A DNA stretch of 62,882 bases, filler included, from an uncultured Methanosarcinales archaeon (lineage in GTDB: Archaea; Nanobdellota; Nanobdellia; Woesearchaeales; UBA12501), in the NCBI GenBank assembly GCA_964397315.1. It is 6 parts of 6 records of this genome, joined end to end, with 100 filler letters (N's around TTAATTAATTAA, not from the genome) between each part and the next. Parts side by side here need not be neighbours in the genome. Positions count along the whole stretch, not along the records: positions 1 to 11,911 come from CAYNHV010000033.1; 5 more parts are not named here. One strand, given 5' to 3'. The position numbers were made by a program. Shown one piece after another: positions 9,001 to 12,000 of the stretch. Each line of letters starts with the position of its first letter. Within the stretch, counting starts at the first letter, position 1.

Positions 9001-12000
9001 AAGGGCCCTGTCCTGTTTGCTCTTTCTCAATACCTTTAGTTTTCCTATCGGAAACTTTTCATTGTTCCTGTATACTACAGGCGTTTTCTCCCTCGTTGTC
9101 CTGAGGTATGATATCCCCTTATGGCCTGCCATCTCCTTCACGCAGTTCTCTGCTGAGACCGCATCGCAGGGGTAGAGTATGACTGAGTCAGGTATTCCCA
9201 TGAGCATGTTAATGTCCTCAAGCCCCATTTGCGAGGGCCCGTCCTCGCCAATGCTCACTCCTGCGTGGCTTCCGACAAGCTTTATGTCCGCCTCAGAGTA
9301 CCTTGCCATTCTTATGAAATCATACGCCCTTGTGAGGAAGGCGCCGAATGTGGCTGCGAAAGGCCTGAACCCGCCTGCTGAAAGCCCCATTGCCATGCCT
9401 GTCATGTTCTGCTCTGCTATGAAAGACTCAAAACTTCTTTCAGGGAATGCCCTGAAGAATGCCTCTGTCCTTGTTGAGTTCCTCACATCCCCGTCCAGCA
9501 CGACAATGTCCCTGTTCTTTGCCCCCAGCCTGACAAGGGCGTTGCCGAAAGCGCTTCTTGTCGCGATCATCTCTCCTTTCCTGTATCTTGTGGGCTGGAA
9601 AGAGCCCTTCCTCCTGGATGGCCTGTTGTACCTTACTGCTGATTTCAGCGTTGTTGAGGGCTCTCCTATCTCGCTTACTGCCTTTTCCATCTCCTCATTG
9701 CTTAGCGGCCTGCCGTGCCAGCCGTTCCTGTCCTCTGCAAAAGGTATTCCCTTTCCCTTTACTGTCCTGGCTATTATGGCGCACGGCTTTCTGCTCCTGC
9801 CTGCTGCTTCCATTGCCTTGAGAATCTCCCTCATGTCATGGCCGTTGATTATCACTGCCTTCCAGCCGAAGGATTCAAGCCTTGACTTGTATTCCTTCAG
9901 GCAGCGGCCCTCCAGGGTCTGCTGTGACTGGCCCAGCCTGTTGGCATCAACAATAGCGCAAAGGCCGCCTGTATTGTAGTATGATGCTATGTTTGCCGCC
10001 TCCCAGACAGAGCCCTCGGCGCATTCGCCGTCTCCGAGAAGAACATAAACATTTCCCTTATCCCCCTTCAGCCTTTTTGCAAGCGCCATGCCCAGGCCTG
10101 CAGAGAGGCCCTGCCCCAGGCTTCCTGTTGCTATCTTCACCATCCTCATCCTTGGTGTCGGGTGGCCCTCAAGAACACTGTCAAGCTTCCTGAGCCTCAT
10201 GAGATCCTTTCCTGGTATGATTCCTGCCTCTGCATACGCTGCCCAGAGTATGGGGGCTGCATGGCCTTTTGAGAGTATGAACTCATCATTCCTTTTCATG
10301 ACTGAGAAGAACAATGCAGACATTATCTCCGCGCATGACATGCATGATGTTGGATGGCCTGATCCAGCTGCTGTGGTCGCTCTTATTGAATGAACCCTCA
10401 GCTTGTCTGCCATCAGCTTCAGGCCCTTTAGATCACCCTTTTTTGAGGCCATAACACCGTATCTGGAATATTACTTTATAAAACTTATGGAATAAGGCAG
10501 GGCAATCTTTTTATATCACTCCAGGGAACAAAATATTATGACACTGCATTCAATAAAAGAAAGGATACCTCCTGAATTGTATTCAGTGCTTGACAAGAAC
10601 GGAATATCAGAGCTGAGGCCCGCCCAGAGAAAGGCAATCAAGGCAGGCCTGCTTGAAGGAAAGAACATTCTCGTCTGCACGCCCACAGCTTCGGGCAAGA
10701 CGCTGATTGCAGAGCTTGCTCTTGTGTCATCAATACTCAAGAGAAAGGGAAAGTGCATATACATAGTCCCTCTAAAGTCGCTTGCTTCTGAGAAGTACAA
10801 TGAGTTCATGGAGAAATATGGGAATCTTTTCAGGATAGCAATATCAATAGGGGACATTGACTCATCAGACCCCTTTCTGAGAGATTATGACCTGGTGATA
10901 TCAACTTCTGAGAAAGTGGACTCCCTCATAAGGCACAGGGCTGACTGGCTCAGGGAGGTGGGTGTTGTTGTCATAGACGAGATCCATCTTCTGAATGATC
11001 CCGGCAGGGGACCCACTCTTGAGATACTCATAACACTGCTCAGGCAGATTCTCAGGAATGTCCAGATACTCGGGCTCAGCGCCACAATAGGCAACCCTGG
11101 CGAGCTTGCAGAATGGCTCGGCGCGGGGCTTGTTCAGGACAAGTGGAGGCCTGTTGAGCTCAGAAGGGGAACCTATCTTGACGGCTCTGTTGAGTTCACC
11201 CAGGGAGATTAATATTCTTCCTTGCCTTCTCCACATCAAAGGCTTTCTCCTTTGGAAGCTCAAAATCCTTCTTGTCCACATCAGCCTTTATGCAGGTGGC
11301 ATTGGCTGGAGAGATCTTGTCAATCAGCTCCTGCTCTGAGAATACGCCTCTTGTCATCTGCTTTTCAGAGAGCTTCATGTCAGGCAAGTAGTCAAACTTG
11401 AGCCAGGTATTATACATCTTTGAGAACCTGTAGAGAGTGCTGTTTGTTATGAAAGCTGTTGTGTTGCTGTCAGACCAGAGGATGTCCTGCCGTATGATAC
11501 CCTGCCTGAACTTCAGTGACATGGGCCCGTAGGATGTCATTATGGTGCAGACATAGCCGTCCTTGTCCTCCAGCGCAGCGCTCAAAGGAATTGTTTTCTG
11601 CCCCTTCTGGATGCTTTCCCTGACCTGAGTTATGCTCTCTTCAATTGATGTGCCCTTGATTCTTTCGTCAGATGATACATCCTCAACAAGCTTTTTCTCA
11701 GGGCTGAAGGATGCCTTTATGCTGAGAACAGAGAAATACACAACAAGGCCAATAATGAGAACTCCTGCTCCTGCAAGGATATACCTCTTTTTCATAAGGC
11801 GCTTGTATCCTGAAGAAGTTTATAAAGCTTTTGATGGGGTCAACGCGCCTGAGGAACTTTATTGAAAATGGCGCAAAGCCATTTTCCAGTGGGTTTAAAG
11901 AAAATCCCGACNNNNNNNNNNNNNNNNNNNNNNNNNNNNNNNNNNNNNNNNNNNNTTAATTAATTAANNNNNNNNNNNNNNNNNNNNNNNNNNNNNNNNN

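Follow-up and report, generated by a model that had tools for sequence, protein, structure and literature searches.

Hel308 DNA helicase is encoded as two unlinked genes across the Woesearchaeales, with the break inside the second RecA-like domain

A hallmark of the DNA helicase Hel308 (Hjm) is that it is one chain of ~700 residues. We found that this does not hold in the archaeal assembly GCA_964397315.1 (G000) of the order Woesearchaeales, where the N-terminal part of the protein has a gene of 224 aa and the C-terminal part has one of 529 aa on another contig. The smaller gene lies in the window, by which we mean the whole stretch of 62,882 nucleotides that was analysed, and its product is quite probably the smaller of two Hel308 subunits, which would come together as a heterodimer; we infer the helicase activity and the cellular role of this split Hel308. 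The two ORFs are free-standing, complementary, non-overlapping and unlinked, and the protein is a single chain elsewhere. Hel308 is therefore a further case within the known class of DPANN split genes.

The gene for the N-terminal piece (N piece) is an uninterrupted ORF of 224 codons running from ATG to TAA (Table 1), and its product matches Pfam DEAD (4.8e-33). Among solved structures the N piece is closest to Hel308/Hjm, not to Brr2, Ski2, Mtr4 or Lhr. Its best PDB match is to residues 7-218 of the 720 in Pyrococcus furiosus Hjm (2zj2_A, E 2.4e-65) and the next best are 2va8, 2p6r and 9b15, so that Hel308/Hjm chains fill the top four places (E 2.4e-65 to 3e-56), with the next class at 1e-41 or weaker. 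An AF2 model of the N piece alone reached a mean pLDDT of 88.5. These results agree with the first-pass annotation of this DNA, which had described an intact, free-standing N-piece gene. The divergent transketolase gene upstream is unrelated to the helicase, and at the other end the overlap of the N-piece gene with a convergent ORF indicates that helicase sequence does not continue downstream.

Table 1. Features of the split Hel308 locus in the window, and the partner gene on another contig
Feature	Position	Strand	Detail
Transketolase, divergent upstream neighbour	8668..10452	-	594 aa; Pfam Transketolase_N, Transket_pyr, Transketolase_C
TATA-box-like element TTTTTATAT	10508..10516	+	22-30 nt upstream of N-piece ATG
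Hel308 N-piece gene	10538..11212	+	224 aa plus stop; RecA1 lobe and first ~20 residues of RecA2
Motif I / Walker A, T48-P-T-A-S-G-K-T55	10679..10702	+	GKT in 43/43 N pieces
Motif II / Walker B, D147-E-I-H150	10976..10987	+	D, E and H each in 43/43 N pieces
Motif III, S181-A-T183	11078..11086	+	43/43 N pieces
C-terminal beta-hairpin of N piece (residues 205-221)	11150..11200	+	RecA2 by Hjm domain limits
Convergent ORF	11196..11795	-	199 aa; no Pfam match; 17-nt overlap with N-piece 3' end
Hel308 C-piece gene	G000:C1:146355-147944	-	529 aa; other contig than N piece

The C-terminal piece (C piece) supplies what the N piece lacks. It matches residues 228-711 of 2zj2_A (E 9e-91), and its top four PDB matches are again Hel308/Hjm (9e-91 to 9e-77; next class 5e-35). 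The motifs of the RecA2 lobe (IV, IVa, V and VI) sit on this gene, and the winged-helix domain 3, the ratchet domain 4 and the HhH domain 5 of Hel308 were all found on it, its Pfam domains being Helicase_C, HTH_61 (1.2e-05), Helicase_dom4_arc (6.8e-32) and HHH_5 (1.9e-07). Thus, as claimed in the first pass, the two genes hold complementary parts of Hel308. A tblastn search of the whole G000 assembly with both pieces found each of them once and no fused form, and the only other SF2 helicase found there with the N-piece query was an intact Lhr of 861 aa in which both lobes are present. In 14 of 19 C pieces the chain terminates in Q-x-x-[LI]-x-x-[YF] (GQISLEDY in G000), a PIP-like tail that may bind a partner. 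Passages of PMC2636818 place a PIP box for PCNA in the C-terminal tail of P. furiosus Hjm (PfuHjm), and passages of PMC13623763 describe an RPA-binding motif in the Hel308 tail of other archaea.

The catalytic residues scored are kept on both pieces. The N piece carries the motifs of a RecA1 lobe (I, Ia, Ib, II as DExH, and III), which are invariant in the 42-43 N pieces compared; P49, T50, S52, G53, K54 and T55 of Walker A and the D, E and H of motif II were each invariant across 42. On the C piece, the Q, GR and GRP of motif VI occur in 22/22 sequences, as do the T-T-G-P-A positions of motif V except for the P (21/22) and the HH-G-L of motif IVa, for which the Hel308 consensus is given as F/YHHAGL in a passage of PMC10484726. 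Mean column identity is 63% for the N piece and 62% for the C piece. The invariant ATPase residues on both pieces support selection for a joint ATPase.

We examined the distribution of the split in 120 further Woesearchaeales genomes, each from a different family. The N piece stands in a frame of 197-350 aa in 109 of the 120 and in a long (fused) frame in none; the C piece is present in 113, and both pieces occur together in 106 if an N fragment at a contig end in G037 is included. Wherever the two share a contig (10/10 genomes) they lie 29-424 kb apart, and the split is also seen in the single-contig genomes G016, G025, G085 and G097, where the stops fall at a common position. The first pass had found the N piece in 53 of 60 genomes of the order and the pieces 38-333 kb apart in closed genomes; the larger sample reproduces the former count, and in the closed genomes we obtained the positions that it had given (754,107 vs 420,626; 1,150,932 vs 1,188,799; 323,307 vs 46,760). 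One piece alone was found in 11/120 genomes: the N piece in G010 (97% complete), G024 (78%), G084 (94%) and G096 (100%), none of which has a PF21280 match, and the C piece in G019, G048, G053 (98%), G058, G103, G106 (100%) and G117. Neither Hel308 piece was found in G006 (96%), G054 and G111. Most single-piece genomes fit what incomplete MAGs would give. Since G096 and G106 are rated 100% complete, a piece may in some cases be unnecessary or work without the other.

Several unusual C pieces were inspected individually. An apparent three-way split in G073 and G037, in which the C piece is cut after RecA2, was rejected because the halves stop at contig ends and are assembly breaks. A 769-aa C-piece frame in G056 was likewise discarded as a fused copy, its extra residues being C-terminal and not a RecA1 domain. 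In G103 the C piece consists of two adjacent parts in different frames, 5 nt apart, reflecting either a frameshift or an adjacent split.

A different outcome of the fission would be that the pieces have diverged and form no obligate enzyme; for example, the C piece, brought in by its C-terminal tail, could bind or anneal DNA without ATP, while the N piece could be a free ATPase or the companion of some other partner. The existence of single-piece genomes, two of them rated 100% complete, would suit such a divergence, as would the lack of linkage or a common operon and the capacity of Hel308 to anneal strands besides unwinding them, as described in passages of PMC10484726. We nevertheless regard it as unlikely, because the pieces co-occur in 106/120 genomes and evolve at equal rates, and because the genomes with a single piece are multi-contig MAGs. 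Moreover, the motif VI arginines and Q and the motif V positions are kept in 21-22 of 22 C pieces, and these residues are not known to act except on a nucleotide that is held by a RecA1 lobe. The sole other SF2 helicase that the N piece retrieves from G000 is the intact Lhr, which also speaks against divergence, as it has both lobes of its own.

The N- and C-piece genes each have their own promoter-like element, ATG and stop. Upstream of the N-piece gene in the window, TTTTTATAT is preceded by an A/G-rich stretch and, from its likeness to the archaeal promoter consensus, is likely the gene's own promoter, from which a leaderless or short-leader mRNA would arise. The same arrangement, A-rich sequence plus TTTAAA/TTTATA at about -36 to -22, precedes 41 N-piece and 17 C-piece genes. 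The wider neighbourhoods gave no functional clue: FtsY is the convergent neighbour of the N piece at 13/30 loci, but it adjoins the fused gene at 0/5 outgroup loci and is also missing beside the N piece in G000, and we drew no link from it. Around the C piece, no neighbouring gene recurs in more than three of 12 loci.

The position of the break can be read from the domain limits of PfuHjm, for which a passage of PMC2636818 gives residues 1-197 as domain 1 and has domain 2 begin at 198. The N piece aligns as far as Hjm residue 218, and the break thus falls ~20 residues inside RecA2. The first-pass annotation had placed the split between the two RecA domains, which is right as to the two genes but not exact as to the place of the cut. 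These last residues of the N piece form a hairpin, with strands at 211-214 and 217-220 in the AF2 model; R204, P205 and V206 are invariant and W203 is nearly so. When the junction was aligned with fused relatives, residues were neither lost nor gained, and the summed length of the two pieces equals that of the fused proteins. The N piece stops 3-6 residues past the conserved hairpin and the C piece begins a few residues ahead of conserved RecA2 sequence, which leaves no space for intein halves.

This tight junction argues against a covalent rejoining of the halves, by split-intein protein trans-splicing or by joining of the mRNAs, that would yield a single-chain Hel308 after all. Inteins do enter these genes: a LAGLIDADG intein interrupts the C piece of G072, the N piece P0008 contains a further one, and frames and match breaks suggest the same for G079, G087 and G093. 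The halves of split inteins measure about 100 and 35 residues, however, and the G000 pieces show neither extra length relative to fused proteins nor any Pfam intein/Hint match. Joining at the level of mRNA sits poorly with two genes that each have an ATG, a stop and a promoter-like element, and mRNA trans-splicing of protein genes is not known in archaea. We consider rejoining by either route highly improbable.

An artefact or gene decay (a frameshift, a mis-assembly or a pseudogene fragment) is a scarcely credible source of the split, even though G000 is a 61-contig MAG and the 11,911-bp contig C33 ends in a high-copy repeat only 700 bp downstream of the N-piece gene: contigs of two further runs of the same study (X2 and X3) are identical across the junction and span the N-piece stop codon without differences, so the split is not an assembly error; the same architecture, with stops at the same place, is found in 109/120 families, single-contig genomes included; the catalytic residues are invariant; and public data hold 3841 clusters of 123-392-aa relatives at E<=1e-40, of which nearly all among the best 120 are 219-235 aa.

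The split arose from a fused gene. Sister orders of the same class have a fused Hel308 of 687-744 aa in 5/5 genomes checked. In quick tree searches, for which SH-aLRT was the only support measure, 17 split genomes formed one clade nested among fused forms (SH-aLRT 100, LG+G4), and the support for this clade was 97 when the junction columns were dropped (mixture model) and 91 with the C-part columns only. Free searches on the N part only (FastTree with 160 rows; a quick IQ-TREE) did not recover a single split clade. The backbone of these N-part trees is unresolved and their starred branches forced one change only; constraining the clade on the N-part columns gave a likelihood higher by 31.5, and it was not rejected by the AU test (p-AU 0.855). 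The nesting of the split forms as one clade within fused forms indicates a single old fission, with the split as the derived state. Together with the spread across the order, it accords with the first-pass view of an old and stable split.

Since the break lies inside RecA2, the N piece carries a hairpin with a predicted docking site on the C piece. When the N and C pieces were modelled as a complex in three runs, ipSAE was 0.81, 0.81 and 0.82, whereas the best of 3 controls scored 0.00. This mark was attained by 116/157 solved complexes and 2/215 mismatched pairs, counts that apply only approximately here, since our own alignments were used. At least 97% of the contacts were shared among the three runs, with a partner pLDDT of 87-88. 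The lowest-error contacts join N residues 209-214 to C residues 173-179, and the model thereby predicts docking of the hairpin on C-piece residues 170-182. As the solved structures of fused Hel308 may be remembered by the model, the score shows likeness to these structures, not binding.

We propose the following course of events for a two-subunit Hel308. An ancestral single gene of ~710 aa broke once, at the base of the order, in a loop ~20 residues inside the second RecA-like domain, after which each half became a transcription unit of its own and the distance between them grew to tens or hundreds of kb. With RecA1 and motifs I-III, the N subunit would bind ATP, and the C subunit would contribute motifs IV-VI with the motif VI arginines, the winged helix, the ratchet, the HhH and the PIP-like tail. 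Two non-covalent contacts could hold them together: the C-terminal hairpin of the N subunit would complement the sheet of RecA2 in the C subunit, while the RecA1 lobe would pack on the winged-helix and ratchet domains. Once associated, the subunits would again make up the ring and the composite ATPase site seen in ordinary Hel308, a 3'-5' DNA translocase that acts in replication-fork repair. A bolder and rather improbable idea is that the split has made the helicase regulatable. The C subunit would then be an ATP-independent clamp or annealase on DNA or PCNA, and the separately expressed 25-kDa RecA1 subunit, present in limiting amount, would be the 'ignition key' that makes a translocase of it, so that stoichiometry rather than conformational change would set the known switch of Hel308 between annealing and unwinding, with the N-subunit hairpin as an evolved docking device. 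If true, this would be natural proof of an SF2 motor with its RecA lobes, plus part of one sheet, in trans.

How does the split of Hel308 compare with known split enzymes? In the split reverse gyrase of Nanoarchaeota, the break lies between the helicase-like and topoisomerase modules and both RecA lobes remain on one chain, whereas in Hel308 the ATPase site itself is divided. The halves of the split DNA polymerase of Nanoarchaeum equitans are rejoined by protein trans-splicing through a split intein, in contrast to the Hel308 junction, where intein halves are absent. Both systems otherwise resemble Hel308: reverse gyrase (NEQ318/NEQ434) is a helicase-containing DPANN enzyme with two unlinked genes for a presumed heterodimer (passages of PMC3655853 and PMC6349945), and the B-family polymerase (NEQ068/NEQ528) is an information-processing enzyme encoded by two distant genes (passages of PMC3655853). 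Passages of PMC3655853 also describe a DPANN SF2 helicase in two genes, the Lhr of N. equitans (NEQ003/NEQ409) and of Nst1 (Nst172/239). Lhr belongs to another helicase family and is intact in G000; it is split in two species at different sites, which marks those splits as recent and independent, whereas the split of Hel308 is one event common to more than 100 families. Single-chain Hel308/Hjm proteins (2zj2 of P. furiosus, 2va8 of Sulfolobus solfataricus and 2p6r of Archaeoglobus fulgidus) have the same five domains, all motifs including IVa FHHAGL, the same summed length and, in PfuHjm (passages of PMC2636818), a C-terminal PIP box to which the PIP-like tail of the C piece may correspond; by contrast, the protein of the order is cut ~20 residues into domain 2, and its two genes, 29-424 kb apart where they share a contig, each have a start, a stop and a promoter-like element.

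A full-text search of openly available literature found no mention of a split Hel308. None appears in the passages we consulted of PMC10946056, PMC11237513, PMC8407392, PMC6349945, bioRxiv 10.64898/2026.05.13.725050, PMC13623763, PMC3655853 and PMC2643942, although the supplementary tables of PMC11237513, a survey of gene fusions and fissions, and of PMC10946056 could list one. The first-pass assertion that the split had not been reported is consistent with this search where Hel308 is concerned; for SF2 helicases as such, the Lhr described in passages of PMC3655853 is a precedent.

An order sampled over 120 families has long kept a Hel308 in which different genes supply the two lobes. In SF2 motors, ATP drives two RecA-like lobes to open and close, and as a rule a single chain links the two. 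Should the heterodimer be active, the covalent tether would be dispensable for a processive Ski2-like motor, and the split enzyme would offer a ready system for studying lobe register, in which each lobe can be separately labelled, mutated and titrated. It would also represent a clean, datable gene fission: one event, with a known ancestral state and no sequence lost. Thousands of ~220-aa database entries with no name beyond 'DEAD/DEAH box helicase' are small subunits of Hel308. A survey that discards partial matches will score the order as lacking Hel308; for example, one Ski2-family survey demanded 60% coverage of the COG, as stated in a passage of PMC10946056. Finally, the split of Hel308 provides a one-gene marker that tells the order from its sister orders.

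The source genome (G000; 1.47 Mb, 61 contigs, rated 93% complete) encodes Hel308 in two genes, with the N piece, comprising the first RecA-like lobe (RecA1), on contig C33 and the C piece, comprising the rest, on C1. The window joins contigs C33 to C38, with C33 occupying positions 1-11911. The closest solved structures to the N piece are four archaeal Hel308/Hjm proteins, 2zj2_A first, then 2va8, 2p6r and 9b15, while Brr2, ASCC3, Pol theta and Ski2 match much more weakly. The N piece aligns to residues 7-218 of the 720 in 2zj2_A (E 2.4e-65) and the C piece to residues 228-711 (E 9e-91); Pfam finds DEAD (4.8e-33) and ResIII (2.5e-13) in the former and Helicase_C, HTH_61, Helicase_dom4_arc and HHH_5 in the latter. 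A tblastn search of the whole assembly with both pieces found a single copy of each and no fused gene. The first-pass annotation of a Hel308 in two unlinked genes is thus borne out. The sole further SF2 match to the N piece was an intact Lhr-type helicase, so SF2 helicases are not fragmented in general in this genome. By its sequence, motifs and domains the feature is assigned to Hel308, the exception being that it is not a single chain.

No helicase sequence follows the N piece in any frame, and contigs from two additional runs of the same study cross its stop codon without differences. The ~45 terminal bases of C33 (window 11855-11900) have a depth of 89-283 versus 3-8 elsewhere (10-30x), and numerous different contigs lead into them; the assembly breaks here at a short repeat of high copy number. 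The remainder of C33 holds ordinary housekeeping genes, and the C piece lies beside PHP-domain genes and a dCMP deaminase gene.

Coordinates of the two Hel308 genes, the other genes of C33 and related helicase features (window positions unless a contig is named)
Feature	Position	Strand	Remarks
N-piece ORF	10538-11212	+	ATG-to-TAA, 224 codons
Convergent ORF, 199 aa	11196-11795	-	without Pfam match; 17-nt overlap with N-piece 3' end
Transketolase gene	upstream of N piece	divergent	
Class I aminoacyl-tRNA synthetase, 1096 aa; cofactor-independent phosphoglycerate mutase; nitroreductase-family protein; YjeF_N protein	740-4030, 5550-7304, 7396-8651	+, -, -	joint coordinates
C-piece gene	G000:C1:146355-147944	-	529 aa
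Lhr-type helicase, 861 aa	G000:C13:23167-25752 (L097:2168-4753)		DEAD, Helicase_C, WH_Lhr, DEAD_assoc
Intein-bearing C-piece frame	G072:C5:134000-138400 (L076), frame 693-3860	+	

The alignment places the cut in the loop that follows a conserved '...IEF/IDF' hairpin and shows neither loss nor gain of residues at the junction (N pieces 219-243 aa, C pieces 484-529 aa). Since the N piece aligns through residue 218 and domain 2 of PfuHjm spans residues 198-399 (domain 1, 1-197; PMC2636818), its last ~20 residues are part of RecA2. The cut had been placed between the two RecA domains; RecA1 is indeed separated from the rest, but the break itself lies ~20 residues inside RecA2. The AF2 model of the N piece alone (pLDDT 88.5) has a hairpin at its C-terminal end, with strands at residues 211-214 and 217-220.

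We used both pieces to query 120 other genomes of the order, one per family; its name, Woesearchaeales, follows the first-pass annotation and the NCBI titles of close relatives. A strong N-piece match (E <= 2.7e-51, 48-71% identity) was present in 109, always in an open frame of 197-350 aa; six had a weak match alone (E 1e-11 to 1e-22), the two listed falling in paralogue frames of 641 and 648 aa, and five had none. The C piece, whole or as a contig-cut part, was found in 113 genomes, whole matches lying mostly in frames of 485-616 aa. After re-checks both pieces occurred in 106 of the 120, including G037 with an N piece cut short at a contig end. The N piece alone was present in four genomes (G010, G024, G084 and G096), the C piece alone in seven (G019, G048, G053, G058, G103, G106 and G117) and neither in three (G006, G054 and G111). 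Because one-piece genomes are mostly multi-contig MAGs, their number is about that expected from incompleteness; G096 and G106, both rated 100% complete, stand apart. The pieces were unlinked in all 10 same-contig pairs, on either strand and separated by 29, 37, 54, 93, 95, 170, 276, 308, 333 and 424 kb. Earlier figures of 53 of 60 genomes and 38-333 kb are thereby extended. In a phylum-wide sample, 187 of 251 genomes had a match to the N piece (E <= 1e-25), with frames of 213-350 aa in 149 of the 150 listed; the exception, a 711-aa frame, belongs to another order. Unpublished genomes G112, G306 and G307 enter the order and phylum tallies only as single counts. Public proteins include 3841 clusters of relatives (123-392 aa, E <= 1e-40), the best 120 nearly all 219-235 aa and named only 'DEAD/DEAH box helicase'.

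Several observations concern other loci. Many genomes of the order carry a second Ski2-like paralogue, possibly ASH-Ski2-like, in 630-760-aa frames with 31-41% identity to the N piece (for example G096:C2, G095:C30 and G085:C1:822717); the N-piece query matched no such frame in G000. In 13 of 30 loci of the order, the N piece has the SRP receptor gene ftsY (SRP54 GTPase domain) as its tail-to-tail neighbour (for example L003:89-1498, + strand), but not in G000, whose ftsY is on C8; nor is ftsY beside the fused gene in any of five sister-order loci. This adjacency is a secondary, partly conserved synteny. In G103 (C2:15105-16614, L077) the C piece occupies two adjacent frames of 173 and 359 aa, ~5 nt apart and broken after motif VI, a pattern that a frameshift, a sequencing error or an additional adjacent split might explain.

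In the sister-order genomes the N match lay within a 687-744-aa frame also holding the C part (5/5 checked). Fused database relatives (700-750 aa, 52-65% identity) include some with the NCBI label Woesearchaeota, which place outside the split clade; one fused protein, P0061, groups with sister-order genome G154. Quick tree searches without bootstraps, on N+C rows from 17 split genomes plus fused forms from five genomic loci and 33 database proteins, recovered the split forms as one clade with SH-aLRT 100 (LG+G4), 97 (C20 mixture model, junction columns removed) and 91 (C-part columns alone). N-part columns, too few in number, left the backbone unresolved; on them the tree constrained to one clade beat the free quick tree by 31.5 log-likelihood units (p-AU 0.855). 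Since the split clade is nested among fused forms, with a sister group including G154, the fused state is ancestral and a single fission occurred near the base of the order.

Could the halves be rejoined covalently? Neither G000 piece has an intein signature (Pfam), and protein trans-splicing is therefore ruled out. Inteins do occur elsewhere: the C piece of G072 is interrupted around motif V (query residue ~126-128) by a LAGLIDADG intein of ~510 aa, and a free-standing N piece among the database proteins, P0008 (716 aa), carries one close to Walker A, so both halves have been colonised. Frame lengths and match breaks suggest further inteins in the C pieces of G079 (C37), G087 (C31, with the insert at query residue ~161, close to motif VI) and G093 (C1). 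Another over-long C-piece frame, of 769 aa (G056:C56:6501-8111), instead reflects a C-terminal extension of ~170-220 residues.

We infer that the N and C pieces are expressed and form an active heterodimer. All 43 N pieces examined contain the Walker A GKT, D-E-x-H and SAT; 22/22 C pieces have motif IVa HH-G-L, motif VI Q-GR-GRP and the motif V T-T-G-P-A positions, except for P (21/22). No role is known for the motif VI arginines other than on a nucleotide bound by RecA1. Conservation is equal (mean column identity 63% for the N piece, 62% for the C piece). An A-rich stretch and a TTTAAA/TTTATA element ~22-36 nt before the ATG of both genes in most genomes are consistent with independent archaeal promoters. 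Models of the complex gave ipSAE values of 0.81, 0.81 and 0.82 in three runs, the highest-scoring of three controls reaching 0.00; the mark obtained by the pair is reached by 116/157 solved complexes and 2/215 mismatched pairs, a calibration only rough here, where our own alignments were used. The predicted interface (~210 contacts, between-run agreement at least 97%, partner pLDDT 87-88) is most confident between N 209-214 and C 173-179, the strand following motif VI; elsewhere in it the winged helix (C 232-241) contacts N 162-170 and N 193, and Walker A and DEIH lie beside motif VI. Because fused Hel308 structures are already solved, this modeled fit indicates likeness to them, not binding. 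Fourteen of 19 C pieces terminate in Q-x-x-[LI]-x-x-[YF], similar to the C-terminal PIP box described for PfuHjm (PMC2636818).

The Hel308 split belongs to a phenomenon already known from DPANN archaea, the splitting of protein genes. For Nanoarchaeum equitans and Nst1, Podar et al. describe it in reverse gyrase, PolB, RNA polymerase B and a 'large helicase-related protein' (Lhr), the last at sites that differ between the two (PMC3655853); Dombrowski et al. add Dph1/2 in Woesearchaeota and others (PMC6349945). Lhr, split in N. equitans and Nst1, is whole in G000, whereas Hel308 is split. The literature portions consulted, including parts of a 2024 archaeal Ski2-like survey and a 2026 Hel308/HELQ review, contain no mention of a split Hel308; the survey dropped matches covering <60% of the COG (PMC10946056), so both pieces would have been removed. 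What distinguishes this split is its age and breadth, the division of the ATPase site itself, and a RecA2-internal cut that leaves a predicted docking hairpin on the small subunit.
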